Source: Catajapyx aquilonaris (Eukaryota). From it: a stretch of 20,000 nucleotides of DNA. Shown piece by piece: positions 1,285 through 19,759 of this stretch. Where the stretch lies: the NCBI GenBank assembly GCA_000934665.2, contig KZ538465.1, positions 48,422 through 68,421 of the forward strand. The letters are read 5' to 3'. Made by a program: the position numbers and the translations under genes. Below the pieces are notes generated by a model, which saw only the letters and a list, made by a program, of their open reading frames with translations, was not told the origin of the DNA and ran no database searches. How positions within the stretch are numbered: position 1 is the stretch's first letter; each line of letters begins with the position of its first letter.

Positions 1285-1883
1285 CTAAACCAATAATGCT
1301 TTGGCCTGCTTCTTTGAATGTAATTTGCTTCTGTGTCGCACTAGTGCAGATTTGGTCACGAAGGACTTCCCGCAATGTTTGCACGAGAACGGCCGCTCGC
1401 CCGTGTGCGTCCTGATGTGAATTGTAACCTGTCCGGCCGTCGTGAAGAGCTTGCCGCAAAACTTGCAGGGATGGAGCTTCTCCATGCTGTGAACTGTCCT
1501 GTGCAAAGCCAGGTCATGCCTAGTACGATACGATTCGCCACAAGTCTCGCACACGTATGTCGGAGCATCCGAGTGTGTCTTTGAATGCCGTTCTAAGTTA
1601 CTCCTGTTGCTAAACGCCATGCTGCACACACCGCAATCGTACGGCTTCTCCCCGGTGTGTACCCGCCGGTGCAGGACCAACACATTGTTGCGGGAGAACG
1701 ACTTCCCACATGTCTCACACACATGGAGCTTAACCGTCTGATGCAAGCCAAGTTCAAGCGGATCATGAGCATCGTCAGCCGCATCCGGCGCAGCCACCAG
1801 CATCTCCTCCTCCTCCTCCTCTTCCGTCTTCACCTGAACCTGCCAAGTGTCCTCCTCAACCTTCACGTTCAGCATAGACATTT
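1285..1883 (-). CDS. C2H2 zinc-finger protein ZNF-A (5 fingers), main exon; probable upstream exon 2002-1946
   Basis: Five CxxC-x12-Hx3-4H fingers with TGEKP/TGERP linkers. Acceptor tttacag precedes 1883. A putative 62-nt intron (1945-1884) joins an in-frame 57-nt exon. The true 5' end is uncertain because of the gap at 2096-2189. Confidence 0.92.
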
Positions 1884-2095
1884 CTGTAAACAATAAACGA
1901 CAAGTAAACGACTGCGATTGAACCGCAAGTTATGACCTACAGTACCGGAGTGATCTCCTCCGCTTCTTGTCGACTGCTGAAGGGCTATCTGCTGAAGGCA
2001 ACCTGCAGCTCCAAAAGTAATTGTAAATAAATAATTACTGGTAATTAGTGGGTATGACCTGACATCTGGGGGGGGGGGGGAGGGGGGAAGACAGG

Positions 2096-2189
2096 NNNNN
2101 NNNNNNNNNNNNNNNNNNNNNNNNNNNNNNNNNNNNNNNNNNNNNNNNNNNNNNNNNNNNNNNNNNNNNNNNNNNNNNNNNNNNNNNNN
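2096..2189. other. Assembly gap (N run) flanked by poly-G
   Basis: Run of N. Confidence 1.
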
Positions 2190-2635
2190 GGGGGGGACAG
2201 ATCTAGACCGCATTCGAGTGGCTGGCAGGCAGATCTGCTCATCTGCAAAAATGTCCTAAATGCCATTGTTATTAATAGGCAGCTGAAGAGCAGCCTTTTC
2301 ATGCCCATTGTTGGGACCAGTCCATGCCGGAAGGACTTCCAGTTGATGATGAGTAGTTTCAGGTAATTAATTTGATCAGACTGAATTATAGAAGTCTCAG
2401 AAAAAAAAAACACCATTACCTGAGGCCCTAATATTCAACACGCTCAGGTAATACCAGCTTGAATTATAAAGGAATCAGTTAATCACCTAGTACTTTAGAT
2501 TATACCATTAATTAAGATGATGCAATTGCTTATATAGTGTGTAATCATAATTCGTGGAAAAAAACACAAAATGCACCACACACAATAATGCACAATCATA
2601 TACTGCTATGTGGACTACTACAAAAGTGCGGACAA

Positions 2636-2716
2636 TCCTAACCGTGGTTTTCTGTGGTTTTCCCATGGTCCCCCCAGGAGAATTCCGGGATTGGTTCCTA
2701 AATAACTAGACCACAG
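2636..2716 (+). mobile_element. Possible SINE-core-like fragment
   Basis: GTGGTTTTCTGTGGTTTTCCC...CCAGGAGAATTCCGGGATTGGTTCCTAAA...GACCAC resembles, from memory, the conserved central domain of insect tRNA-derived SINEs. Not verified by a search. Confidence 0.35.
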
Positions 2717-3447
2717 GGGATGGAGTTCCAGCATGTGTGGGAGCGGTCGTCCAAACCCATTATTATATCAAAAACTCCGCATTTGGCTCCTTGAAATAAG
2801 CTGTATGGAGTCTGCCAAGTAAGAATTTGGCTCCTTGGAAGGTTTTATAACAATGGCATGGCGTGCATGGATTTAAATCCAGAGAGAGGGGGGGGGGGGG
2901 GGGTNTGGATTTGTAGGAATTTAGTTCATATGTGGAGTTCCCCCTTCAAATTACAAGGATGCGTTGTTGTTCTTGAGGTGGGGGCGGAGGGAGTCTCCCA
3001 AGGGAGGGTGCTCGTCCGAGTCATTTCTGACTCTCTTTTAATACCAGACCTTTTCTGCAGGCGCTGGACAGAGAAGGGAGTGCGATTCTGCCCTGACACG
3101 GCGGGTGAAAAGCGGCAAAATACCCGACCAAGCTGAGGTGATCGGGGTGGGGGACAGAACCTCCGGACCTCCCGCTTGGCTGGCCCGTAGCAATAGGCCA
3201 CTGTGTCTCCCAACTGACTCCCTCCTGCATGTAACGCATGTTTAGTTTTGGTTCAAGAGGAACTCTCGCTCTGACTCCTGTCTGGCGCCATTGCTGTTGC
3301 CATATGCAATTGTCATGTTTAGTTTTAAGGGTAAGTCTCGCTCTGACTCCTGTCACCATTGCCATTGTCACCGCCACTCGGAGACCAAATTCTTGGACTT
3401 TGAGGTAAAAAATAAATAAAAAACTCCATACAGGTCAGTAATTTGGG

Positions 3448-3962
3448 GCCACAACACAGCGCAGAAGGGGACGTCGGTGGGGGCACTGGTGGCCTCCATG
3501 AATCCTGTGTACACCCGCTACTTCAGCACCGTGGCCATACATCGCCATGAGGAGGAGCTGTCCAACTTCATCGCCACCAACATGGTGCAGGCCTTGCACA
3601 AGTACAAGGAGACGAATGGCAAGCTACCGTCGCACATAATTTTGTACCGTGATGGTGTTGGTGAGGGACCGCCCAAGCAGGGGAACCCCAGCCCTGGGAC
3701 CATTGTGGACGACATCATCACTCTTCCGGAGAGGTATGACTTCTACCTGATCTCCCAGACGGTGCGGCAGGGGACGGTCTCGCCCACCAGCTACTCCATC
3801 ATCTTCGACACGCTAAATCTGGAGCCGGACAAGGTGCAGCGTCTTACCCACAAGATGTGCCACCTGTACTTCAACTGGAGTGGCACCATCCGCGTGCCTG
3901 CCCCCTGCCAGTACGCCCACAAGCTGGCCTACCTCGTTGGGGAGTACATACACACCGCCCAC
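3448..3962 (+). pseudogene. piwi: Piwi/Aubergine-clade PIWI-domain C-terminal fragment, intronless, with an internal in-frame deletion
   Basis: Motifs GALVASM, EELS, IILYRDGVGEG, NPSPGTIVDDIITLPERYDFYLISQTVRQGTVSPTSY and HLYFNWSGTIRVPAPCQYAHKLAYLVG are diagnostic of the PIWI clade. N/PAZ/MID domains, the GxDV motif, the roughly 45-aa segment containing KRINTRF and the terminal LxxL are absent. Confidence 0.9.
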
Positions 3963-4551
3963 TGCAGTATGTCGCTGCCATCGATAAATGCTACAGCAAC
4001 ATTGGCATCAATATTTTGATAAAATTCAGAATGTAATTGCTTCTAATAATTGGCAGTGCTTTCAATAAATCCTCTGTAAATGTTCAAACTTGGAGATAAA
4101 AATTACCTAAGCTGAACAGCCACTTTCAGTAACAATAGTCTGACATAATACCGCAACACCCATAAAAAAAATTACATCAGGACATTCACATGGGCCGGAT
4201 TTTAAATTTTTTGAACATGTTAATTATAATTGTAAGCGCTCTGTATTATAAGAGAACAATTGTTGGAGAAAAAAAAAATCATGTGACCAACACAACAACT
4301 TTCAGATCTATCCGGACCTGAACATATCAAATTTTGAAAAAAATTAGAAAGGTATTCGCATTCCACACAGCCTACATTATACAGATCAATTGAAGTACTT
4401 ACACTCGCAAATGAAACGCATTTAAATAACGCCGCCTGTATAAAAAATTATCAAATCTGATTGTAATTACTTAGCTTTTGGTTGACTTGCGCCAAAAAAA
4501 AGTCGTATAACTATGAAAGTGTGACATGTTCATATATATGTCATGCACTTA

Positions 4552-6814
4552 TCTAATACATATTTCAAGACCTATATCTGTCTGTCTGTCTGTCACCTAA
4601 ACAGATCCATACGGAGGCCTCCACATATGCCCCAGGGGTATCACCAGGGGTAGTTTTTTACCGGGAATAACATAGGCACATTGGAATTGACCTCCGAGGT
4701 CATCCTTGGCCACAGGAGGCGAAAAGGACTTTGGACGTTGGCCCCCTGTGTTCTAATAATGCTGTTTAGTTGCCCTGGAAACCATGTCCCTCCCTCCCTC
4801 CCTCTCTCTCTCTCTCCATTCCTCCCTCCCCCCCCTGCCACCACCTCCTCCAGCCCCTCAGTGTCATTACATTTCTACGTGGTGGCTGTACTTTGGTCAG
4901 TGCTTTTGCACTCACATTGGGTGCATACTTTATTGTTCCAATTTAGAATTTATTACACACTGTTGCCTTGGTTACGAGACTACTGGTGTGATTGGGTGAT
5001 GGTCACGTTTTGTTCATAATATTCAAAGAGTTCCATATATTGCTATGCTGGTATCTCATTTCAACACGGTGGCACGGTCCAGCTACGGCCTCGGGGCAGG
5101 CCCAGGGTTCGAGCTGGTGGTATACAAATGCGCTGTATGTAAGAATAGCGGTTTTGGGTTGTTTCTTCAGGGAGCCTGTCGGAATTTTCTTGGCGTACTT
5201 TTCCTGCATTACCTTTTCCTCTACGTATACTGTGTCATGTGCTTTTTGTCGGAATTCTCCTGTTCCGAACTGTGTTACGTTCTGTGTCGTGTAGTTTTCA
5301 ATCGTTTTGTTTTTATTTGTTTTTTCCCTCTTTGTAAATTTTGGACCTCCACATTCTCAGTGTATATTCAGAAGTCGTTATGGGATGTGGTTTAACGTGT
5401 TTAAGGTGTGGTATAAAGGTATAAGGTGTATAAGGTGTGCCATAATGTGGTCTACGTAGGTTTGTGTCATGCAGTTTTCAATCTTCTTTGCATTTGTTTG
5501 TTTTTTCACTTTCTAACGTTTGGACCTCCAGATTCTCAACACCCCACCGACTTTAACATGGGCCTAAAAACATAGCAGCATTGGCAGAAGCACATTGTAC
5601 ACACGCAGAGTTCGGCTAAGGGTGAGGGACCAATCAAGAGACTGAGGAAGAACACCAATCATGTCTCCACTCTATGAGAAACAGCGGCCATCAGTCGGAG
5701 ATTAGCTCCATTTTCTTCAACCCACCTCCTACATGCCGCTTTCCACTACTCAGCAGACATTGACAATAATTCTTCTGTCGGTGTTGTTGCAATTGGATCT
5801 ATGTCAGAGGTATGCCACCATTGTCAGGCAAAGAAGTGGAAGGGTGAAACAAAATCGATCTGTTGCTCCATTGGAAAGGTTAGCCTTCCTCTAGACTGGC
5901 TGAGCCTCCACAGCTACTTAAAATGCTTCTCTCAGGTACAGTACATCGTCTGATTCAAAACATTTCCTGAATACCATCAGAAATTACAATTTGGCCTTCC
6001 AGATGACATCTTTTGGGGCCAACGTTGTTAGACAAGGGGGCTTCATGCCTACATTCAAAGTGCAAGGGCAAATTTACCTTCGCATGGGATCACTCCTTCC
6101 TTCAGAAAATCACAGTCCGCGGTTTCTGCAACTTTACTTCGTGGGAAACATGCAACAGCAGGCGGAATACAGTTGCACCTACTTAAACGACACACGCCTC
6201 CACATCACACTGCAACTTCAGGAGATGATCCATTCCACTCACACTTACGTCAAAAGCGTCAAGCTTGCACTTGAGAGTCCTCCTCCTCTCGAATTTGACT
6301 TGGTCATCGATGCAGACAAGCGACCACAAGGTGAGCATCGTGGTCGATTCAATCAACCTTCTTGCAATGGGGCTGCTGTGATCATGAGTGGTCAGGATGA
6401 GCATGGTAATAAGAGGGAAATTGTGTTGAAGCTTCGAGACAACACGCTTCATCTATGCAATTATGAACGTAATTGGCTATACCAAATATTGCATGTGCAT
6501 CAAGTCCAGAAAACACACATTGGATATCAGATTGTAAGCTCTGCCATGCTGGAGCTTCTACACATTCTACATTTACTTCTACATTTACTGCACAACCTTC
6601 AATTTTTCATTACATACTTTTGCTGGATTTTGGAGGTGCATTGTGTATTACCTTACAATCTGACATCCGCAGTGTGGTGTTTGGACTTCATGCACATGCA
6701 ATATGCTCCATGTCATGGTATGCCAACATTGTATAGCCATAATTATTGCAAATCAATGAGTCACTCCTATGGAAAAGTATTTCATAACCCGAGCAACGCC
6801 GGGTATCCGGCTAG
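4552..6814 (+). mobile_element. Non-autonomous, internally deleted Helitron
   Basis: 5' A|TC at 4551/4552, followed by a (CTGT)n microsatellite at about 4577-4594. 3' hairpin ACCCG-agcaacgc-CGGGT (6787-6804), then CTAG|T (6811-6815). Internal RepHel N-terminal coding remnant. The 3' end is more certain than the 5' end. Confidence 0.8.
5792..6450 (+). pseudogene. Helitron RepHel N-terminal region remnant (Cys cluster plus pre-Rep region), frameshifted and truncated
   Basis: IGSMSEVCHHCQAKKWKGETKSICCSIGKVSLP / EPPQLLKMLL / SKHFLNTIRNYNLAFQMTSFGA...GFMPTFKVQGQIYLRMGSLLP...PRFLQLYF...GEHRGRFNQP...REIVL. Two frameshifts near 5895 and 5945. No HUH Rep core or Pif1 helicase seen. Confidence 0.88.
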
Positions 6815-6999
6815 TTGTCTATATAATTGCTGAACATTAACAAATTCACAGAATTTAAATATCTGATTGGCATTTAAATAATTATTTATTTCCAGCACTG
6901 CGCATTCCAATAGAGAACACCAGTCAGAACGCACCCTTAAAAAAAACTGTTTTTCTAAGACATCGGTAGCAACGCACCCTTTTTTTTATAAATAAATAA

Positions 7000-7011
7000 T
7001 CCAAGATGGCG
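7000..7011 (+). promoter_or_regulatory. YY1/Pho-type motif TCCAAGATGGCG upstream of the Harbinger-derived gene
   Basis: Matches the AAGATGGCG YY1/Pho consensus about 20 bp before the ATG at 7031. The identical 12-mer occurs upstream of ZNF-D. Confidence 0.45.
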
Positions 7012-7030
7012 ACTGTTCCACTCAGATAAA

Positions 7031-8508
7031 ATGGACGAGGATTTGCTCCTTGCTACGGCTGCCTTTGGGCTTTTCGCGATGGCATGCACGGTAGTAGAAA
7101 AGGTGCGGAAATGTCGGCGACGTAGGGGACCCACCAGGGATTTGGAACGACGGCGTCACGAGAGAGGAACTTACAACAACATACGTGAACTTCACTTCCA
7201 GGACAAGTAAGTCGTGTTCCAGGCACTTGACAACAACCCCCTTCATTTAGATTCTTCTTTTTTTTTCCAATAGCGAGTGGCTACGGATGGATACGTTCAA
7301 CTACTTGGCCGACCTGACCAGATCACGACTGACACGGCAAACAAGTTTGATGTGTGAAGCTGTATGCTCGGAGGAACGGCTTGCAGTTACGCTCAAGTAT
7401 CTGGCCACTGGAACCACCTTTAAAGAGTTGTCATGCGTGTTCCGGCTGGGGGAGAGGACCATTTCGTACATTGTTATCGAGACATGCTTGGTGTTAAGTG
7501 AGGTCCTAGCTGGCCTCATTCAATTCCCCCGAAATCCGTCAGCATGGGAAGACGTTGCTCTTGGATTTTGGGAACAATGGAATTTCCCCAGGTGCTTAGG
7601 CGCCATCGACGTGAAGCGTATCACTCTCAGAAAGCCGTTACTGTCCGGCTCACAAGGGATTGACCTTATGGCGGTTGTAGATTCGGACCTTAAGTTTATC
7701 TACGTCGACATTGGAACAAGCGGGGTTTGGGACGAGTGCAGATTGAGTAGGGAATTGGCCGAGGGGAAGATTGATCTCCCGAGGCACATGCCGTTGCCTG
7801 GGGAGACGCAGCAGATCCCTCATGTTTTTGTCGGTGATGACGCCTTCCCACTCAAACCTTACCTTATGAAGCCGTACGCCACGAGGAATCTGGCTTATGA
7901 GCAAAGGATTTTCAATTACCGGTAGGTGTGTTTCATGCAAAGGTTATTGCGGAGTAATTAAATATATTAATGTTAGGCTTTCACGAGCGGCGCGGTGCGT
8001 AGAGAGCGCCTTCGGAGTTCTCGCATACAGATTCCGTGTTCTCCTGAATCCCATGCTACTGCAGCCATCCCAGGCTACGATTGTCGTCCGTGCTTGCTGC
8101 ACCCTCCACAACCTGTTGCGGTCAAGAGCAACCTCCAGAGATGTGTACAGCCCAAAAAATCTAACAGACCAGGAAGACGAAAGCAGCGGACACATTACGC
8201 CGGGAATGTACGTATAATGTACCTCTTGCCGCCTAAAAGTGCTGTCCTTTTGTGTACATTTTATGCGAGAAAAGTGCACAATGAATTTGGCCAGAAATAA
8301 TCATGTGCATCAGGCCACCTCAACTTCTCTTTTGTTGAAATTACGCTTTTTAAATCATTTCAGATGGAGACAAGATGACCACTCGTATTCCATGCTTCCA
8401 ATCACCCCGCCAGCCAGAGGACAAAACGGTCTTACAGAAGCCGAGGAAGTACGACAGCGATTCAAGGACTTCTTCAACTCGCATGGCGCTGTACCTTTGT
8501 CAGGATAA
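7031..8508 (+). CDS. PIF/Harbinger transposase-derived protein (HARBI1/ALP1-like, DDE_Tnp_4 family), 399 aa; exons 7031-7206, 7274-7921, 7977-8207, 8364-8508
   Basis: Three GT-AG introns (67, 55, 156 nt) give one 1200-nt frame. Motifs: LRMD, EERLAVTLKYLATG (HTH), WNFPRCLGAID, FVGDDAFPLKPYLMKPY, IFNYRLSRAARCVESAFGVL, CCTLHN, VRQRFKDFF..GAVP. AATAAA at 8580-8585. Confidence 0.9.
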
Positions 8509-8786
8509 CTCGAAATTGCAATGAACTGTGCCTCTGGCGCAATGTAACACACAAAGAGGACAAAAAAGAGCGTAAGAACAATAAATCGGACGGTTTCTAC
8601 ACTTTCACCCAGAAATATTCCCCCGATGCTCATTTAAAAATAATTTTATTTAACAAACATGTCCATTGACAATGTAAATATAATTGCTAGCATTAGTCGC
8701 AAAAATATCGCTGAGTAACTGCAACTGCACATTATCATATGAAAATAACACCTCATGGAGCTCTTTAATAATATAACACAATCATT

Positions 8787-8996
8787 GCATATATAAAAGG
8801 CAAAGTTTGTCTGTATGTCCATGGCAACAGGCGTCCATAGCAACGGTTGTTAGTGGAAGCAGGCCACACGTGAAGATCAAGCTCGATTATCATCATTACA
8901 TATATAAGCCGCACAGTTTGTTTGTCTGACCATGGCAACAGGTGGTCATGGCAACAGGTGGTCATGGCAACAGGTGGTCATGGCAACAGGTGGTCA
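8787..8996 (+). repeat. Short interspersed element with duplicated head and 4x 16-bp tandem repeat CATGGCAACAGGTGGT
   Basis: Heads at 8787 and 8899. Perfect units start at 8931, 8947, 8963 and 8979. The head is similar to the reverse complement of 12845-12900. Confidence 0.8.
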
Positions 8997-9102
8997 GGGA
9001 ATCAAACTGTGGAAACAGTCCACTGCTGTGAAGATTTCCAGTATAATATAATAATAACTGTAATTTTAAGGGTGCACGTGACAACATGTGTGTAAAAATG
9101 CA

Positions 9103-9959
9103 TTATTTGGCAGCGTGTTTCCGCTTTATGTGCATCTTTAGAGTGGAGCGTACGACGAACGAGCGGTTGCAATATTCGCAAATGTATGGCCTCTCGCCTG
9201 TGTGTATTCGTGTGTGTTCAATCAAGTGGCATTTGAGAGTGAAGGACTTCCCGCAGGTTTCGCATGGGTATGGCCGCTCACCAGTGTGCGTCCGTCTGTG
9301 CTGCACCAAGTGTAGCTCCCACGAGAATCCTCGGTTGCAATACTCGCATGTGTAAGGAAGCCCGCCTGAGTGTGACTTCGCGTGGACGACCAGGTTGGAG
9401 CTCTTAGCGAACGACATGTTACAGCGCTTGCAAGTGTACTTTTTCTCGCCCGTGTGAGTACGTATGTGTGCGACGAACGCGCTGCTTTGAACGAACGACT
9501 TGCTGCAAATCCTGCATGTGTATGGCTTATCCCCGTTGTGAGTCGCGCGGTGTCTGACTAACTCGGAGTTGTGCGCAAATGTCTTATCACAGAATTCGCA
9601 TGCAAACGGCTTTTCCTCCACATGCACGTCCGCATGATCAGTCAGTGCCGTACGAGACGTGAAGGACTCGCTGCAAACGGTGCAAGTGAACGGCCGCTTC
9701 CCACCATGGGTCTTAAGGTGCGGTAACATCTGCCGCTTGGCATGAAACGACTTCTTACAAAATTCGCAACTGTAAGTGGATCTAGTGTGCGGCCCCTTTG
9801 ACTTCTCAGCTGCGGCTGAAGCATCCGGATCGTCTTCGGCATTGTCTGAAGCTTCAGGGGCTTGCGCTACTTCAACAACATCATCGTCCGAGTCGTCTAG
9901 TGTCACCTCTTCCTTAACCTCAGACTTCACTGTCGATCTATTCACCAGCGGCATCTGGT
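9103..9959 (-). CDS. C2H2 zinc-finger protein ZNF-B (8 fingers), main exon
   Basis: Eight canonical fingers with HTGEKK/HTGERP linkers and an acidic N-terminus (VKSEVKEE...DDSDDD). Acceptor ttgcag precedes 9959; in-frame ATG at 9954. Upstream exons not resolved. Confidence 0.95.
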
Positions 9960-10021
9960 CTGCAATTAATTAATTAATAAAAATTCATAATGCAAGGTCA
10001 AAATAACCATTCTACAGTTTC

Positions 10022-10022
10022 A

Positions 10023-10077
<55 letters not shown>
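10022..10077. repeat. (ATT)n microsatellite
   Basis: Uninterrupted trinucleotide run. Confidence 0.97.
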
Positions 10078-10079
<2 letters not shown>

Positions 10080-10730
10080 AAGGCAAAATGTTTTCTCGCT
10101 TGTCCAGTTTGTTCGTCCAAATATTGTTTGCTTGTCCCTCATTTGTCAATTTGTTGGTCTTACGTTTGTTTGTCCAGATAGTTTGTTTGTCCTTCGTTTG
10201 ATAATTTGTTTGTCCACACACTTTGTTTTATCCTGCGTTTGTTTGTTTGTCCAGATACTTTCTTTTTGTTTGTCCTTCGTTTGTTTACTTGTTTGTCATG
10301 CATCTGTCCAGACACTTTGTGTTGTCCTGCGTTTGTTTGTTTCTCCAGATACTCTGTTTGTTTGTCCTCCATTTGTTTATTTGTTGGTCGTACGTTTGTC
10401 CAGATACTTTTGTTTGTTAATTTGTTTGTCCAGACACTTTGTTTTGTCCTGCGTTTGTTTGTTTGTCCAGATACTTTCTTTGTTTGCCCTTCGTTTGTTT
10501 GTCCTTCGTTTGTTTGTCGTACGTCTGTTTGTCCAGACACTTTGTTTTGTCATGCGTTTGTTTGTTTGTCCAGATAACTTTGTTTGTCCATTGTTAATTT
10601 GTTTGCCCAAATTGTTTGTCTTAATTAGTTCATTTGTTTGTTGTACGTTTGTTCGTCCAGATGTTTGTCCTTCGGTGGTTCGGTTGTTCATTTGTTTGTC
10701 CAGTTTGTTTGTTTGTAAAGGTTTGGTTAT
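10078..10730. repeat. TTTG-rich degenerate minisatellite with recurring TTTGTCCAGAYAC cores
   Basis: Repeated TTTGTTTGTCCAGA(T/C)ACTTT and GTCCT(G/T)CGTTTG blocks; strongly A-poor on the + strand. Confidence 0.9.
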
Positions 10731-11661
10731 CCGCAGTACTTTGAAACGCTGTACTTTTCCACTGTCGCAATATTCACCAGTGACACGTGATCCGTAATTA
10801 ATTAATTAAGTAATTAATTACCAATTAAAGTGTTGAATGAATAATGAACAGCTGAAAACAGCAGTATATACTTTACAATGTTACAAACTAGTTACTGGCC
10901 AGGTGTGTACTTTCCAGGGCTCCAGGGACAGTTGGCGTTCCAATTAAGTCTGCAAACGAGAAGCACCTTGACGTGTATGACCGATAATTAGCGAAGTAAT
11001 TGACTCCGCAATTAGTGCAATCTCGACAATAATAGAAAGAAAAGGTGGGTATATGGCGACTCCAAGCGGCGGGTATGACAACTAACTAGAAATCTGATTC
11101 ATATGATAATTTTAATTGAACGTGACTGCTCTTAAATATGTTTTGACAATACATAAAGACGTTTAACTATGTAAAGCACTTAAAATAAATTAAAACAGTC
11201 CAAATTATTGAGTGGTAACAACGCTAGATGTCTGATAGCGGTCAATATTGAAAATATATTAAGGCTCATTCGGGTGTCTGCTCATTACCTGCACTTTTTT
11301 ATTTAATTAAACTTCAGTTCTAATCTAGGGTTAGCTCATACGCATTTTAATGTAATACTGTCCCTACACAATAGGATATTAATTTAAACAACTGTAAGTA
11401 GAACAAGTTAGCATTTACTTTAAGAAAAAAATATCAATACTTCTGCATTACCAGATCAGAAAATCATTATCGCAATTAAAGCATATTTAATAGCCTAATT
11501 ATTAAACATTTCTGCCGAGCACATGGTTTGATTTAATTGGCTGCAAATTTTTAGCGCACATTAATATTGTGCAAATAAAATCCAAATGAAAATGTGGGGT
11601 TGCCAGACACAGCGCGCACTTCTCCTCACCCGGCGTTCGAAACTTTCTGCTGAAGCTTTAA

Positions 11662-11708
11662 GGGTCATTCCAGGTCATTCCGGGTCATCTGGAGGTCAGC
11701 CCAGGTCA
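11662..11708 (+). promoter_or_regulatory. Five direct RGGTCA nuclear-receptor-type half-sites, spacers 4,4,5,4
   Basis: GGGTCA 11662, AGGTCA 11672, GGGTCA 11682, AGGTCA 11693, AGGTCA 11703. The pattern is certain; function is inferred. Confidence 0.4.
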
Positions 11709-11944
11709 CCATCACGTTTATTACAAGTTCAGTATTGTAAGGTATACACGCATGTGTAATGTAAAGTACGCAATGTACGGATTGCATCCCAAAAAAAAAT
11801 GTTTCTCTCCACACATATATGTATATGCACATAATATATTATGACAACCAAAGTTCCATAATTATAATTATAATAACAAGTAATGACTGATGAATTGTAC
11901 AGTACTTGCAAATATATTCACTAGGTAAAACTCAGGCACCAGTA

Positions 11945-14900
11945 ATGGACTGGCTGAAGGAGCTTCACTACTACATGTCGTCGAAGGAAGACGTCCCTCG
12001 CATGCAGGGAGAAATGCTTCTGCTGCAGCCGAACGTCATCTTCAGACTTGTCGTCAAGTTCAACTTGCTTCAAGTCTTCAACGACACAGGTACGCAGCTT
12101 CAATTACCATACAATTATTCCATACAATTAATATTATCTGTATCTCTATCTCATCTATAGCTCTATATTTAATTATATAAAAGCGTGGCTATAAGTTTGT
12201 TCGTTTATCCAGGCTGTTTGTTTGTTTATCCAGGTTGTGTTTGTTTGTTTGTTTATCCCGATTGTGTTTGTCTGTTTCTTTATTCAAGTTGCACTTGTTT
12301 GTATGTTTGTTTATCCAGGTTGTTATTGTTGCTCTCTTCTTTGTCCAGGCATCAGGCTGTTTGTTTGTTTGTTTATGTGTCCAGATTGTGTTTGTTTGTT
12401 TATCAAGATTGTGTTTGTCTGTTTCTTTATCCAAGTTGCACTTGTTTGTATGTTTGTTTATCCAGGTTGTTTGTTTATCCAGGTTGTTTGTTTATCCAGG
12501 TTGTTTGTTTGCTTGTTTCTTTGTCCTGATTGTTTTCTTTGCTGTCTTGTCCAGGCTGTCTGTTTGTTTATCCAGGTTGTGTTTGTCTGTTTGTTCATCC
12601 AGGTTATGCTTCTCCCAGTTGTTTGTTTGTTTTGTTCAGTTGGGTTGTTTATCCATGTTATGTCGTTTCTCCTGGTTGTTTGTTTTGTTTATCCAGATTA
12701 TTTGTTTGCTTGTTTCTTTGTCCCCGATTGTTTTCTTGCTCTTTTGTTTGTCCGTCAGCCTGCTTGTTTCTTTGTTTGTCCAGGTTTGGTTACCACGCCA
12801 ACAGGTTTCTATAATTTTCATAATCCTCAGCGGAACCTGCCTGTTTTCCATGGTAGCCCTGTTGCTATGGACAAACAAACAAACTTTCCCTTATATATAC
12901 CTGAGTGTATGCGTAAGAAAATAATTTGATGAAAATTGATGGACTTCTTCTATACCTATTTGAATGTGTTGCAGTGCATTTGGGTTGGAAGTTGATAACC
13001 ATACCCAAGTATGTGGAGGCCGCCATCAGAGAGTGGGTAGTGGACGTGTCCAAGGGAGCCTTGGAAGCGGCCAGGGTCCAGGTTGCGCTGAGGATATCGC
13101 ACCATCCGCACCCAGGAGTGGTGCCGGAGATCCACCGCTTCTCACAGCTCCTGACGTCGCCTTCGGAACCAAAATCCATTCTGTTCCAGTGCTCCGGATT
13201 GCTGTTGGCCATGTCCAACCCAGTTCTCTACAAGTGAGAATTACATGTCTGAAATGCGGATGGGGATCTAATCGAATGAATTTATTGCAGTCAGAGCGAA
13301 TCGTACCATTGCCCCGATAAAGCTTGCCCTGGACGATCCGAGTGGATATTCGACACTTGTCCGACCGACAAGCCGCAACAGCTGCTGTGCGCCACGTGCG
13401 GCCAGCTCCTTGAACTAGACTACACCCAGAAGATCCTGGGGACAAAGGTCATGGGCACAGTTGTCCCCGACCACACCCCCTACAATGCACACATCAGTCG
13501 TACTCAGACAATCCAAGTTTCCTTCAAAGGTGCGTTTTCTGGTACGGAAACACTGGTTTTTTACTAATTATGGTCCATCCGCAGATGACCTCGTTAAAGG
13601 ACTGACCCTCGGCGGACACTACGACATCCTGGGATATCCCGTGTACATTAACGACAAGACACTAAAGAACCAATGGGTCACATGCTTAGAGTGTTGCGGC
13701 GTGGTCCATATCAGGACCTACTCGCCGTTTCCAGCCTGCCATCCTCCATTGCCAGATACTCCAGCCGGTGAACTCTACCACTGCTTGCGACAGGACCACC
13801 ACAATAGCCTGTTTCCGCTGGCTTTGGCCTTCTCCGCAGCTCCCATGGTGACACATCCGGCCACATTCATCCAGCTCAAACTTGCATTGTTGCTGGGACT
13901 CGTAGCGAACAGTGTGCATCCGATATCAATATTGGCCGAAGCATCTGACTCAAACACTGTGCACGACATTATGAGCTGGGCACTTCAAATTGCCCCTAGG
14001 TAAGCGCCATGTAATCGACGACGTTTAATGACGCTCAAAACCATTTGTCACATGTAGGTCAGTTGTACATTCCATCAGCATGCCGCTGGTGGTTGGAGCA
14101 ATGCCGAAGAAGCAGGGTGCGGAGGCTGGCTCAATGTTGCGGGCCGGTAATGGCGTGTGCTACCTTGGCGAAATATCCCGTCTCCGTAAGGATGCAAGGA
14201 ATGCGATTTACACGGTACTGGACAATCAGGCGGTTGCGGCGAAGGCCTGCAGTGAGCTGGATCGCATGGGACGAGGAATAAGCTCGTACAATATCACATG
14301 CGGGCTGTGGGCGTACAGCGAACTTGTGCCCAAGTCCAAGGAACCCATCATGCGGTATGCGAATTGTACAGTAATTCATAATGGATTGTAATCACTCGTT
14401 TACATTCATCAGGATGTTTGGACTCCACTTCTACATAGACGACTCCAGTAGGATTGGTCAGGAGCTGGACGTAATTAAGTCGTCGTACTTTCTGGCCTGT
14501 GCGACTAATGGCGACAAGAAGAACCTTCCGAGAGGGGCCAACCTGAGCGTCGTAGAATTCCGGCAGCTCATATACGAGAGTGCGGGCAGGAAGGTCGTGT
14601 TCTCGCCCGAAGCCGAGATGATGATCCGCCATTACTACGTGACCACCAGGAAAATCCGGTATGAAAACGGCGGTGCGCTCAGCAAGAATTTCGTACCGGA
14701 CTCGGCTTGCGCTGCCATGTGCGTAACCCAGTATGCATCTGGAACGTTACTTTAGCTCAGAATAATGTACCGCAATTTTTTGTAGAACCGGAATGGCCGT
14801 TGCTCATGCGAAGTTGCGGTACAGCAGCGAAGTGACTGAAGATGATGCCGCAATTGCGATCTGGATCTACGAGGATGCTAAAACTGCGCTGGCTAATTTC

Positions 14901-15123
14901 TCGTGCCTCGGATGGGAGTCGCAGCCGCATATGATTGGGATCAACACCATTGAGGACCTAGCCAGCAAGGTCTGGAAGTTAAATTTGGCTTAAAAATAGC
15001 CTAATTTAACCGAGTGTATTCTTGCAGCATGATGTCTTCTTCTCATCGTTGAAAGGCGCAATCAGGAAATTCATGGCCGAAGATTCAAAGGCAGCCTCCA
15101 ATGATGGCAGCAGATCCGGCTGA
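11945..15123 (+). CDS. MCMDC2: MCM domain-containing protein 2-like (meiotic recombination), 646 aa; exons 11945-12089, 12975-13233, 13291-13529, 13585-13999, 14058-14354, 14413-14718, 14786-14969, 15028-15123
   Basis: Seven GT-AG introns join into a stop-free 1941-nt frame. It has an MCM Zn finger (CPDKAC...CATC), LKLALLLGLV, EAGSMLRAGNGVCYLGEI, FSPEAEMMIRHYYVTTRKIR and AHAKLRYSSEVTEDDAAIAI. Degenerate Walker A/B motifs fit MCMDC2 rather than MCM2-9. Confidence 0.88.
12176..12900. repeat. TTTG-rich repeat element (TTTATCCAGGTTG cores) filling most of MCMDC2 coding intron 1
   Basis: Recurring GTTTGTTTATCCAGGTTG units inside the 885-nt intron 12090-12974; the other six introns are 55-67 nt. 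Confidence 0.9.
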
Positions 15124-15940
15124 ACACATCGTTTTCCTGCGCAAAGATGCAGAGAGTAACGTCTACCAAGCGCATACGTTGGTACCTGGCTTCAGTTAGG
15201 TCGATGTTTGTTCAGTTATGTTCGTTCATGTTTTAATCTAGTCGCTTCAGATGTAATTAGTCATCTGCTACAGTCATGTCATGGTGCAATTATTTAACTT
15301 ATTTAACGTGCCGTTGAAGCGCACGTTGCTTCAAAATGTTAACAATGTTTCTCATAGGTGTTGGACCTAGTGTTAATTCCCGGCATTGTTTGCCCGAGTA
15401 GGTGAAGGTTTTTAATGGAAGCATCTTCCATATGTATATAGAGAAGGATTATCGTTATTTTAAGTGTTTTGTTTGAAGCTAGGTCCATGCTACACCTTGT
15501 TGTGCTGAAAGTTTTATCTGTTACGTTTAATTTAATGTACGAGAAGTCACAGGCTCCTTGTAAATACTGCGGGCTAGTTTCTCATAGATTCGTAGCCTGC
15601 TGTTACAGCCAAATAAAAAGTCAAGGACTTATTTATTTTACGTAGAGTACGACTTATAAAATCGGCACCTAGTCAAGTTATTTTTTTTTCTTCCTAATAT
15701 AATACAATCTGACACTATATATTAAAATGTGTCGTGACTTAGTGGATTCCATGCCAGTTTAAGGAATATTTGCGAGCACAGAACTCTTTATTATCCAACA
15801 ATGTAACTAGGTAACAGTGCAATGAGGACACTTATACAAAGAATTAAATTAACAGACTGACATGCTCAAACTATAACTTGCAGAAGGCCGGTTACAGTGA
15901 CAGATTACTTCAATGCCACCTTGACTTCTGCGGGAATATT

Positions 15941-16819
15941 TCAGAGGAGTCCACCGTGGATGTTGGCAATGTGTCTCTTAATACTTGCGCAGTATGAAAA
16001 CCGCATGTTGCATATTTCACAGGCAAACGGCTTCTCACCAGTGTGCATCCTCTTGTGAACAACTAGGTCACCCTTCCACATGAACGACTTGCCACACTCT
16101 TCACACTTGTATGGCCTCTCTCCTGTATGGGTCCTCCTGTGTACAAGTAGCACAATCTTTTGCGTGAAAGACTTGGCACACTCTCCACATTTGAATGGCC
16201 TCTCCCCAGTGTGGATTCTACGGTGCCTCGCCAAGGCTGAGTGGAAAGAGAAAGTTTTGCCACAATCCGGACACTCCAGTGGCTTCAGTCCACGGTGCAT
16301 TTGTCTATGCTTCATCATGTCGCTGTCACGAGGGAATGTCTTGTAACAAATCTTGCAACTAAATGGCCTAGGTCCACTACTAGAAGGCTGTGTGGACATT
16401 GCAGGTGTGCCAAGTGGATCTTCAACTCCTTCGGTGATTCTTGGTGCATCCACCAGCATTTCCTCTTCTTCTTCAGTCTTCACCTCCACTTCTCCAATGT
16501 CCAACTCATCATCTTCACAATCATCTTGCTCTTGCACTGGTGAGAGCCTCTCTTGCTTAATCATCATGGTTGCCTCTTCTGCAGTATCGTCACTTCCTTC
16601 TTTCACCTCAGAGGTATGAATTTGCCATCTGTGGGAAATGCAAACAGACACATCATGTATCATTAGAGGATAATATCACTGGTGCGACTCTTGTTTATAT
16701 ATAATGGCCTGTCAGGATTAGGAGGGAAATGATTTCACGACTTAGGTGTAAGTACACAACCAGCCGTACCTGTTGTCGTTATCAGCAATTGTGGCGCAGT
16801 CCCATCCCCAAGCCTCCAT
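15941..16819 (-). CDS. C2H2 zinc-finger protein ZNF-C (5 fingers), 245 aa; exons 16819-16770 and 16628-15941
   Basis: Five fingers with TGERP/TGEKP linkers. The 141-nt intron (AG|gtacgg...ccacag|A) joins MEAWGWDCATIADNDNR in frame to WQIHTSEVKE. Confidence 0.92.
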
Positions 16820-17099
16820 CGCCTTCGTACTCTTGAGTGTGAGACACAAGCAGCTCTCGTGCACCACAATCGCTTTCTACTGCTTCGAAACTACACCACA
16901 CACACTTCCAAACAATAACGAAGACATTCCGAACAACACCATGTCTCCGTAGCAATCAACAGTGAAAAGATGCCAACAGAAAGATGAGTAGCCTAATGAG
17001 AATGCAGTAGTCTAGATGGGACATCCGCAGCAGGTTGGCATAGTGGATAATTGGCGTTTTTGCATGTCCCACAGGACGGTTGTCCATAATAAATACGAC

Positions 17100-17670
17100 T
17101 CATCAGATTACGTTAATCACTTCCGTGGTAATATTTCAGAGGAGTCCACCGTGGATGTTGGCAATGTAATACAATCTGGGTAACCGCACCGTTACCCAGA
17201 TGTATTGTTGGATAATAATAATTTAAATAACAATTACGACATTAGAAAGGTTGTGCCACATTCCGTACACTCTGGTTTTACTCCGCTGTGAATTTTTCTA
17301 TGCTTCATCGCCACCTTGGTCTTGCCCTCTTGAGACCTTCTCTTGCTTAATCATCCGCAGTACCATCAGCTTCTCTGGTTTCCTCATTCACCTCGGTATG
17401 AAATTGTAATCTGGAAAATACAAACAGACATATGTCATACCTCCAACATGATACCAGTGGTGGAGAGATGCGGCTCACCATTAGTCCCTCGTTTTATTTT
17501 GACCATATCCTGCCACGTTTCGGAGCGAAATGATTTCACAACTTATGCGTCATTAATCACCACGTACTGTGGAGTGAATCAAGTGCACCACAATCGCTCT
17601 CTACTGCTTCCAAAACACTCGCACAAAAGTTCCAAACAACCCAACTCTCCATACCAACCATCAATGAAAA
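17100..17670 (-). pseudogene. Deleted tandem duplicate of ZNF-C
   Basis: Colinear blocks: 17130-17167 = 15935-15972 (identical), 17251-17309 ~ 16257-16317, 17331-17430 ~ 16541-16650, 17522-17545 ~ 16721-16744, 17583-17639 ~ 16859-16915. Confidence 0.88.
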
Positions 17671-18025
17671 TGGGGAGAAATGTTGGAAAACAATGAAACG
17701 TAAAGTTTATTACAAATAAATGAGCTTTTTTATTATTATTAGCAGTTGAGTAAAAACACAAGGTAAGCTGGCCACGGGGATTTTGCATGAAATATTTATC
17801 GGTGACATCTTATAGTATGTTCAAAAAATAAATGTCTGATTCGTGCCACAAAATACACTCAGACTACATCTAAGAAAGAACAAAATCATTCCACTCCCAG
17901 CGTACGCTTTAAAAAATTTGATCCACATTTGCACAACATGCATTCCTATTATGCAAATATTGCAACTGCTATACACAGTACAACACCATACAATGGTAAG
18001 CTTTATGCATCTCACAGTATAGTTT

Positions 18026-19067
18026 CTATCCATTATGAATTCGCATATGCTGTTTCAAAGTGCTTGACTGACTAAAACCTCTCTGGCAGACATCACAAAT
18101 GAATGGCTTTTCTCCCGTATGAGTTCGCATGTGATCTTGCAAATTGCTTTTAGTCCTAAATCCTTTCTGGCACACCTCACAAATGAATGGTCTCTTTTGA
18201 GTATGAGTTCGCATGTGTGTTTTCAAAGCGCATGACTGACTAAAATTTTTCTTGCACACATCACAAGTGTATTGTCTCTCGCCGGTATGAATTAGCATGT
18301 GTGTTTTCAAATACTTTGAATCGAGAAATCTTTTCTGGCAAAGCTCACATTGAAGTCTCTCTCCCGTATGAATTCGCATGTGAGCATTCAAATCACATGC
18401 TGTGCGAAATACTTTCTCGCACAACTCACAAATGAATGGTTTAACCATTGAATGAACTTGCATGTGAAGTTTCAAGCCACTTGAACTGACATATTTCTTC
18501 TTGCACACGTCACAAGTAAATGGTCTCTCGCCCGTATGAGTTCGCATGTGAACTTCCAAGCTCCTTTCATTACACAATTTCTTCTGGCAAATTTGGCAGC
18601 GATTTTTGTCACGATGAGTTAACATATGAATTTCCAATTTATGCAGAGTACCAAACAATTTCTCGCATATTCTGCATGCATGTGGATTTCCTGTAGTGCT
18701 TCTTTCCTCCTTGGTTCTGCCCTTTCCTGCTGCGTCTTCAGCGGTATCTTGCACGATCTGAAATGTGAATCAAGTTTAGCACAAATTTATATTGGAATTT
18801 CAGCAGATTACGTACCGCACTAATCTTTCCGGAGCCAAGTGCTAATGGGTCTTCTTCATCTTCGACCGCACTGGGCGTGGCCAACACCATCTCCTCCTCC
18901 TCCTCCTCTGGCTCCTCTTTGATTCCTTCTTCTACGAAGAGTGTGGCGTCCCCTTCGAAGCATCCCGGTGCCTCCTCCTTGAGCTGCAGCCTCCACGTCT
19001 CCTCCACCTTGAGGTCTTCTCCTTCCTCCAGCTCCTCCTCCTCCTCCTTGACCCCCAACGAGGTCAT
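18026..19067 (-). CDS. C2H2 zinc-finger protein ZNF-D (8 fingers), about 327 aa; exons 19067-18816 and 18757-18026
   Basis: Acidic exon joined by a 58-nt phase-0 intron (GCG|gtacgt...tttcag|ATC) to an eight-finger exon. An in-frame stop lies upstream of the ATG at 19067. Confidence 0.92.
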
Positions 19068-19331
19068 GGAGGTCACCCAATGACCTCAATCCACGTCCCA
19101 ACCTTGGAGGGTCTGCCAAAGAGGAACATTCGGATGTGCCTGCCGCACACTTCGAAACAAAAGGCCTGCCCTTCCACCCTCACACCTGAGCCCTCCTTCC
19201 CTGCACTGAGCATGCCCTGCACATCAAACCCTAGTTACCTGCACTCCTCCCGGGGTAATCACACGTCTAATTAAACGTCATTCATTGTTTGCAAGTGTTG
19301 GAAGTTCAATGTTTCAGAAAATAACAATCGG

Positions 19332-19343
19332 CGCCATCTTGGA
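19332..19343 (-). promoter_or_regulatory. YY1/Pho-type motif TCCAAGATGGCG upstream of ZNF-D
   Basis: CGCCATCTTGGA on +, in sense orientation for the minus-strand gene. Confidence 0.45.
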
Positions 19344-19759
19344 TTCGGAACAAGTGACGGTCGCCCAATGGTGCCAACACAAAAAAAGATGTGAGCGTTA
19401 ATATTAGCTAATTAATTATCTTTTCATTAGGCAATTAAATGTCTCGGCTTTAATTACATGCTGCGAATGTCAAGGTCTTTAAGAAAATTGAATGCTAATT
19501 TTCTGTTGGCATCACATTTAAACGCGGGATGTTCACACAATGAAAACATTAAATTAATTTAAACATGTTAAATTTCATGGGAGGTGAAAATTAAGTCTCA
19601 CTGCCGATATAACTATCTTTCATGTTTTATTAACATGCATTTTGCCTTCTTCGATCACTGCGTAGCGAGAACATGTCATGATGATGAATGATGAGCGGCA
19701 TTCTAACCAGGGAGAGACGGTGAATGTTGGCAACAACGCAATGTCATGTTTATTACAAA

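Follow-up and report, generated by a model that had tools for sequence, protein, structure and literature searches.

Zinc-Finger Genes at the Locus

The window analyzed here is a 20,000-nucleotide stretch of the Catajapyx aquilonaris genome (GenBank assembly GCA_000934665.2, contig KZ538465.1, positions 48,422 to 68,421), the last 20 kb of this contig (contig C834 in our numbering), and contains four C2H2 zinc-finger genes (ZNFs) on the minus strand, ZNF-A to ZNF-D. Three of these (ZNF-A, ZNF-C, and ZNF-D) are, by sequence comparison, members of a recently expanded arthropod C2H2 family with a common acidic N-terminal region, here called the head, which carries several psi-K-x-E sites and is the subject of this analysis. 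The peptides quoted for all four genes in a preliminary description of the window were located in minus-strand frames with C2H2 arrays downstream (Pfam zf-C2H2; 5, 8, 5, and 8 fingers in ZNF-A, -B, -C, and -D, respectively), joined by TGEKP-type linkers as in tandem C2H2 ZNFs. The features of these genes, all on the minus strand, are as follows.

1285..1881, minus strand: ZNF-A coding exon, 198 amino acids (aa), a short head followed by five C2H2 fingers (splice site predicted from sequence)
1747..1881, minus strand: ZNF-A head (beats 500 of 500 shuffles), with VKVE at 1855-1866, the Trp element DTWQVQVKTE at 1822-1851, poly-Glu, MLV at 1795-1803, and DPL at 1756-1764
9103..9959, minus strand: ZNF-B, eight fingers and an acidic N-terminus with overlapping VKSE/VKEE sites at 9907-9930; not demonstrable as a member of the head family
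15941..16628, minus strand: ZNF-C second coding exon, including five fingers; head elements IKQE at 16550-16561, VKTE at 16472-16483, MLV at 16451-16459, and DPL at 16412-16420
16770..16819, minus strand: putative first coding exon of ZNF-C, running 50 nt from its ATG to a phase 2 GT donor and also conserved among paralogues of C type
17119..17640, minus strand: remains of a ZNF-C-type gene, a partial copy decayed by frameshifts and a stop, with a finger remnant (blocks of 72-94% identity to ZNF-C)
18026..18757, minus strand: ZNF-D finger exon, eight C2H2 fingers
18816..19067, minus strand: ZNF-D head exon, full form, with a predicted in-frame splice to the finger exon (327 aa); VKEE at 19041-19052, LKVE, ETWRLQLKEE at 18972-19001, IKEE at 18912-18923, poly-Glu, MVL at 18882-18890, and DPL at 18843-18851
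19239..19380, minus strand: ZNF-D putative promoter and non-coding first exon (paralogue alignment), containing the elements TGTTGGCACC and CAAGATGGCG as well as a GT donor that is conserved

The splice models are read from sequence alone. In ZNF-A, the ATG lies two bases past a CAG acceptor-like site, and the head is a shortened form lacking the middle linker, while the ZNF-C head lacks the Trp element. Addition of the putative 50-nt exon gives ZNF-C an open frame of 245 aa and leaves no room for a ZAD. The ATG stands 4 nt past a YAG in 107 of 130 full heads of the family. Head and fingers share one exon in A- and C-type genes; in ZNF-D and most D-type genes, a head exon precedes a finger exon. 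Upstream, the readable DNA is bounded by a 94-base N gap before ZNF-A and by the end of the contig, 930 bases from ZNF-D.

The putative promoter and first exon of ZNF-D were delimited from an alignment of 12 close ZNF-D paralogues (ZNF-D itself excluded), whose first exons show frame-breaking indels and have a promoter-like block in common; the same elements were then located in the window. We take the CAAGATGGCG element to be YY1/Pho-like, as presumably is AAGATGGC, which lies no more than 900 nt upstream of 99 of 124 heads (e.g., window 19332-19341) and once in reverse. A promoter marked by AAGATGGC is, on this count, common to family members.

Anatomy of the Head

The full head comprises, in order, Met, psi-K-x-E, an acidic tract, E(T/S)W-x-psi-x-psi-K-x-E, a linker, psi-K-x-E, poly-Glu, MVV, ten residues, and DPL, with M..psiKxE..E(T/S)W-x-psi-x-psi-KxE as its core. 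Its composition is 35% Asp+Glu, with a near-invariant Trp. In a set of 130 heads, obtained from matches to a profile that includes DPL by requiring the first Lys and a Trp (36 open reading frames (ORFs) dropped), at least three psi-K-x-E sites occur in 111 heads, compared to 59 of 26,000 shuffles. At least two acidic residues fall within the next ten at 392 of 422 sites, which is partly expected from composition. By sequence, the head sites thus correspond to the SUMOylation motif that depends on amino acids with negative charge (NDSM), defined as psi-K-x-E followed by acidic residues (PMC5727262), as the preliminary description had proposed. AlphaFold reported no secondary structure for the head (pLDDT 60.5, pTM 0.16), which looks disordered in this model.

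The constant spacing described for the hydrophobic patch is exact in ZNF-A, -C, and -D, where the Met of MLV/MVL lies 13 codons ahead of DPL with a Pro at M+5. Family-wide, the Met-to-DPL spacing is kept in 126 of the 155 copies that could be parsed (of 179), but the Pro is not: at M+5, 68 of these have Pro and 71 have Ser. Nor is a defining core of DPL and Pro supported. A further 27 heads were picked by the Trp element alone, from among the listed pattern matches outside the existing set, and so lean toward divergent subfamilies; the upstream site is present in 24 of them, a third site in 17, and DPL in 10, with fingers within 4.5 kb of 18. Because DPL is found in only 10 of the 27 and the lysine sites persist, the MLV-Pro-DPL module is, as far as these sequences tell, a dispensable C-terminal half, and the lysine sites are the constant part of the head. 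Some heads carry two tandem MVV..DPL modules (L011:1516-1920, minus strand, and others).

Extent of the Family

The family has at least 232 copies in the genome, based on exact matches to a DNA pattern of the Trp element (232 vs. 1 for the reversed control), and must be larger, since this pattern misses many known heads (it fits only 103 of 166 head ORFs). Searching the genome with the ZNF-D head gave at least 151 matches (with the best 150 of 416 candidates scored) and with the ZNF-C head 48 matches, 17 of them with E < 1e-4. A profile search of 695 kb around these matches returned 179 module copies in 166 ORFs; given that no reversed ORF and none of 3,480 composition shuffles matched the profile, the sharing of the module is not due to chance. 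At least two same-strand fingers lie within 1.5 kb of 102 of the 161 copies with at least 1 kb of downstream sequence, compared to none on the opposite strand, and for 124 of 166 head ORFs an ORF with three fingers could be linked at no more than 4.5 kb. The remaining heads, read by eye, mostly precede long transposon-filled introns or the end of the examined DNA, and no other DNA-binding domain was seen downstream of those without nearby fingers, where the sequence is mostly transposon debris.

ZNF-A, -C, and -D each beat all 500 of their own shuffles under three profiles, one of which was built without A and C but included one C-type paralogue, and the claim that the window's ZNFs share a module therefore stands for these three. 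It does not extend to ZNF-B, whose head was equaled or beaten by 214-467 of 500 shuffles under the same profiles. ZNF-B has DDPD in place of DPL and only two psi-K-x-E sites, and a genome search with its head returned itself and one match at E 8, with no other paralogue. Four more ZNF genes with divergent acidic heads lie upstream on the contig (G000:C834:36024-48100); on the full-head profile, three beat 500 of 500 shuffles and the fourth was beaten by 2. Synonymous divergence was higher in finger arrays than in heads in 26 of 33 paralogue pairs, and finger numbers differ, suggesting array shuffling or gene conversion of heads, although this is partly an effect of pairs having been chosen by head similarity.

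Selection on the Head and Fingers

Substitution patterns show that the head is selected mainly for the three psi-K-x-E sites, the Trp that directly precedes the second of them, and the terminal D-P-L of many subfamilies. Of 65 disjoint pairs of paralogues, 5 were set aside because their distance was 0.25 or more; across the other 60 (synonymous divergence 0.26), the ratio of nonsynonymous to synonymous divergence (dN/dS) was 0.03 at the consensus Lys, 0.05 at the Glu two positions on (E+2), 0 at the Trp, and 0.07 at DPL, compared to 0.31 at MVV, 0.42-0.44 in the linkers, and 0.64 in the MVV-DPL spacer. The motifs are thus better conserved than the flanking linker, the comparison on which the preliminary description had made its proposal depend. 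Consensus-column Lys changed in 4 of 177 comparisons, whereas Lys elsewhere changed in 65 of 148; the corresponding figures for E+2 are 4 of 166 vs. 262 of 1,115, and 26 of 27 changes at psi stay hydrophobic.

While the head is conserved, the finger contact residues are shown by the same kind of comparison to diversify. As had been described, they differ among all genes and fingers of the window. Contact positions (-1, 2, 3, 6) gave a dN/dS of 1.68 (bootstrap 1.25-2.2) on 12 of 33 pairs, 1.55 on 23 of 33, and 1.43-1.67 under per-finger filters (52-202 fingers), or 1.4-1.7 overall; these, like all dN/dS values here, are counting estimates, and mispaired fingers and codon bias could inflate the contact values. 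Positive selection at DNA-contact residues is a trait that the family has in common with FiNZ-ZNFs and KRAB-ZNFs.

Relation to Described Domains and Motifs

The head matched no described domain. Among 30 heads searched against Pfam, no family matched more than 2 (best E 0.0065), KRAB not among them. As far as the upstream DNA is readable, ZAD, KRAB, and BTB are all absent; 46 upstream minus-strand ORFs (at least 45 aa and two Cys) gave no Pfam family past the cut-off, none of the 12 genome matches to the zf-AD profile lies on this contig, and no BTB match lies on it among the best 150 of 346 candidates. Derivation of the head from ZAD-ZNF linkers was also considered, but ten ZAD loci, read by eye together with 1.5 kb on either side, showed no such head.

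Outside this genome, no head homologue scored among 5 candidates or among 8,000, and the ESM Atlas returned none (best score 0.77), these searches having low power for a short acidic motif. A search of 1.84 billion representatives gave one match (E 5.5e-4), to a repetitive protein of 1,476 aa that has no fingers, and this was judged to be chance. A literature search that covered few subscription papers found no description of the head. The head itself is therefore lineage-restricted as far as the homologue searches reach, but its SUMO sites are not lineage-specific. Among 120 unrelated animal ZNFs, the region before the first finger contains at least two psi-K-x-E sites in 63 and three in 37, indicating that such sites are a general ZNF trait, with a density of 0.73 per 100 aa vs. 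3.96 in the heads; DPL occurs in only 6, and the head profiles score none of the 120 (best E 0.019). The N-termini of FiNZ and of some cockroach or termite ZNFs may also open with psi-K-x-E sites, followed in the latter by DPL. If so, the head would be convergent or older than this lineage.

Among other short motifs, the CtBP motif (PL[DN]Lx or PxDLS) was present in 0 of 165 copies, and DPL was rejected as a family-wide CtBP site; a looser CtBP pattern fits 2 of 165, one being PLELG in ZNF-A. Likewise, patterns for HP1 (PxVxL; 1 of 130 heads) and for WRPW, eh1, and LxxLL (0 of 130 each) were essentially lacking.

Putative Function of the Head

The best explanation, which we hold to be evenly balanced between true and false, is that the head is a multi-site SUMO acceptor recruiting silencing complexes, a handle like the vertebrate KRAB or the fish FiNZ. 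The disordered acidic head would be the shared effector and the finger array the variable address. Ubc9 would SUMOylate the head lysines, aided by the acidic flanks, and, less surely, the multi-SUMOylated head may recruit complexes bearing SUMO-interacting motifs (SIMs), such as SetDB1/Wde and Mi-2/MEP-1, to the DNA read by the fingers. Turnover and contact selection make transposons plausible targets, and the Trp and DPL elements are probably additional short docking motifs for other partners. The parts of this explanation differ in strength: that the head lysines act as SUMO acceptors is quite probable; SUMO-dependent silencing by the head could equally well prove right or wrong; and an autonomous SUMO-based silencing module, in which the finger protein bears its own multi-SUMO platform and needs no TRIM28-like scaffold to bring SetDB1-type complexes to transposons, is a reading that we regard as somewhat doubtful.

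The selection pattern fits SUMO sites because conservation at mapped fly consensus SUMO sites is likewise confined to K and E+2 (PMC10363806). The fly SUMO pathway recruits SetDB1/Wde, and the fly Bonus protein requires SUMO for repression (PMC10672805). Of 166 human repression domains, 149 were ones in which SUMO motifs were important (10.1101/2022.08.26.505496). Several points weigh against the silencing explanation. In the available text of a Drosophila repression screen, repressive domains show no SUMO-motif enrichment (PMC9890238), and the psi-K-x-E sites, being common in unrelated ZNFs, may be a generic regulatory feature. The SIM that had been read into the hydrophobic patch was rejected, SIM patterns occurring in 29 of 130 heads vs. 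57% of shuffles. Positive selection at finger contacts does not reveal the target. Conservation of the first Lys, Trp, and DPL is inflated in the 130-head set, since its filter and profile contained them; in all 166 ORFs unfiltered, K1 is present in 150, W in 137, K2 in 152, K3 in 142, D in 156, P in 159, and L in 156, with 16 of the K3 misses due to a two-column misalignment of C-type genes. Finally, a published rule for acidic activation domains is passed in its relaxed form by 90 of 130 heads and in its strict form by 26, ZNF-D passing both (PMC10550315).

This last point, with the Asp+Glu content and the near-invariant Trp, favors the main rival, in which the head works as an acidic domain for activation, or for both directions, whose Trp, Leu, and Phe contact co-activators, with SUMO only dampening or tuning its activity as in Sp3. 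We consider it unlikely, as the ZNF-A and ZNF-C heads fail both forms of the rule, selection sits on K, E+2, W, and DPL instead of being spread across the hydrophobics, and human activation domains are rarely changed by SUMO-motif deletion (10.1101/2022.08.26.505496). Alternatively, SUMO on the head could serve localization, turnover, or insulator-like clustering as in ZAD-ZNFs, many of which act at boundaries in flies (PMC12947871), and SUMO sites are widespread in ZNF linkers; the lack of a dimerization fold in the AlphaFold prediction and the family's fast duplication, its decayed copies, and a dN/dS above 1 at contacts, which fit conflict better than architecture, make this quite unlikely.

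Very unlikely, in our view, is direct KRAB-style binding of a scaffold such as Bonus/TIF1 by the Trp strand (W-x-psi-x-psi) or DPL, with SUMO secondary. The constraint on Trp and DPL agrees with it, alternating hydrophobics would suit a bound strand, and TRIM33 has been proposed as a FiNZ partner (PMC11603059), but the Trp element is missing from the C-type subfamily and DPL from 17 of the 27 divergent heads, while lysine sites persist, and neither a KRAB match nor CtBP PL[DN]L was found. That the shared head is no more than a neutral acidic linker, kept alike by recent descent from one ancestor or by gene conversion, is barely credible. The closer synonymous similarity of heads than of finger arrays noted above would agree with it; the site-specific dN/dS already contradicts it, and neutrality cannot spare the consensus lysines without sparing neighboring lysines.

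Comparison with Known Systems

In layout and evolution, the head family is FiNZ- or KRAB-ZNF-like. The FiNZ-ZNFs of cyprinid fish, for which knockdown evidence indicates transposon repression, are likewise a lineage-restricted family of hundreds, with a short Glu-rich N-terminus unlike known domains and adaptive finger evolution (PMC10547256; see also PMC11620358 and PMC11603059); their arrangement of a head exon followed by a finger exon is seen in ZNF-D and most D-type genes only. They differ in that FiNZ is 28 aa long, compared to about 45-85 aa with Trp and DPL here, and the term SUMO is absent from the main text of that report (PMC10547256). FiNZ was compared by its description, and the head profile found no FiNZ-like protein, low complexity limiting its power. 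The KRAB-ZNF/TRIM28 system shares the head and finger exons, clusters, pseudogenes, and positive selection at contacts; here, however, there is no KRAB match, the head is predicted to be disordered, and the SUMO sites lie on the ZNF itself instead of on the scaffold. KAP1 SUMOylates itself.

The ZF271-like/APEZ genes of Hemiptera are also insect tandem ZNF clusters without KRAB that undergo turnover, but no domain besides fingers is reported in the available text, whereas a selected head is defined here (PMC6444547). The inhibitory domain of Sp3, also a C2H2 factor, has psi-K-x-E (IKEE) in a region that is disordered and, once SUMOylated, recruits SETDB1 and Mi-2 (PMC2978682); Sp3 is, however, a single conserved gene with one site, whereas the exon common to the present family carries three or four. 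ZAD-ZNFs are an arthropod expansion with an N-terminal module, but the head has no Cys4 ZAD, and the ZAD genes of this genome sit on other contigs.

Other Features of the Window and Genome

The remainder of the window contains a multi-exon MCM-family gene (~11900-15120, plus strand), head-to-head with ZNF-B (Pfam MCM E 1.8e-4; PDB MCM7 E 0.02) and presumably MCMDC2-like, one frame of which gave only a weak lead to a Mutator-like element. Long degenerate TTTG-rich repeat tracts (10100-10720 and 12190-12780) flank the intergenic region between these two genes. A Piwi-domain fragment (3420-4019, plus strand; Pfam E 2e-51) has no introns, seems to have lost an internal segment, and is probably a processed pseudogene. 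A Harbinger-like transposase lies at ~7030-8500 (plus strand; DDE_Tnp_4 and HTH_Tnp_4 below cut-off), and a fragment at ~5600-6450 (plus strand) had no Pfam match and is one we take to be Helitron-like; similar sequence occurs downstream of a family head on contig C2909. Genome-wide, BTB forms a large clustered expansion of long single-frame genes (at least 150 matches scored), and the end of one BTB match (G000:C359:94294-94611, plus strand) lies some 1.5 kb upstream of a same-strand head.

Implications

How insect ZNF expansions act without KRAB or TRIM28 has been stated as an open question (PMC6444547), and the mechanism of FiNZ is likewise described as unresolved (PMC10547256). The present family offers a possible answer at the level of residues, in that over 200 genes with diversifying fingers carry a head built on three lysines, a Trp, and a DPL. 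Because multiple psi-K-x-E sites recur in the N-termini of KRAB-less ZNFs of fish, aphid relatives, beetles, and moths, an autonomous SUMO module could, if true, be a general and repeatedly evolved way for KRAB-less ZNF expansions to silence DNA.

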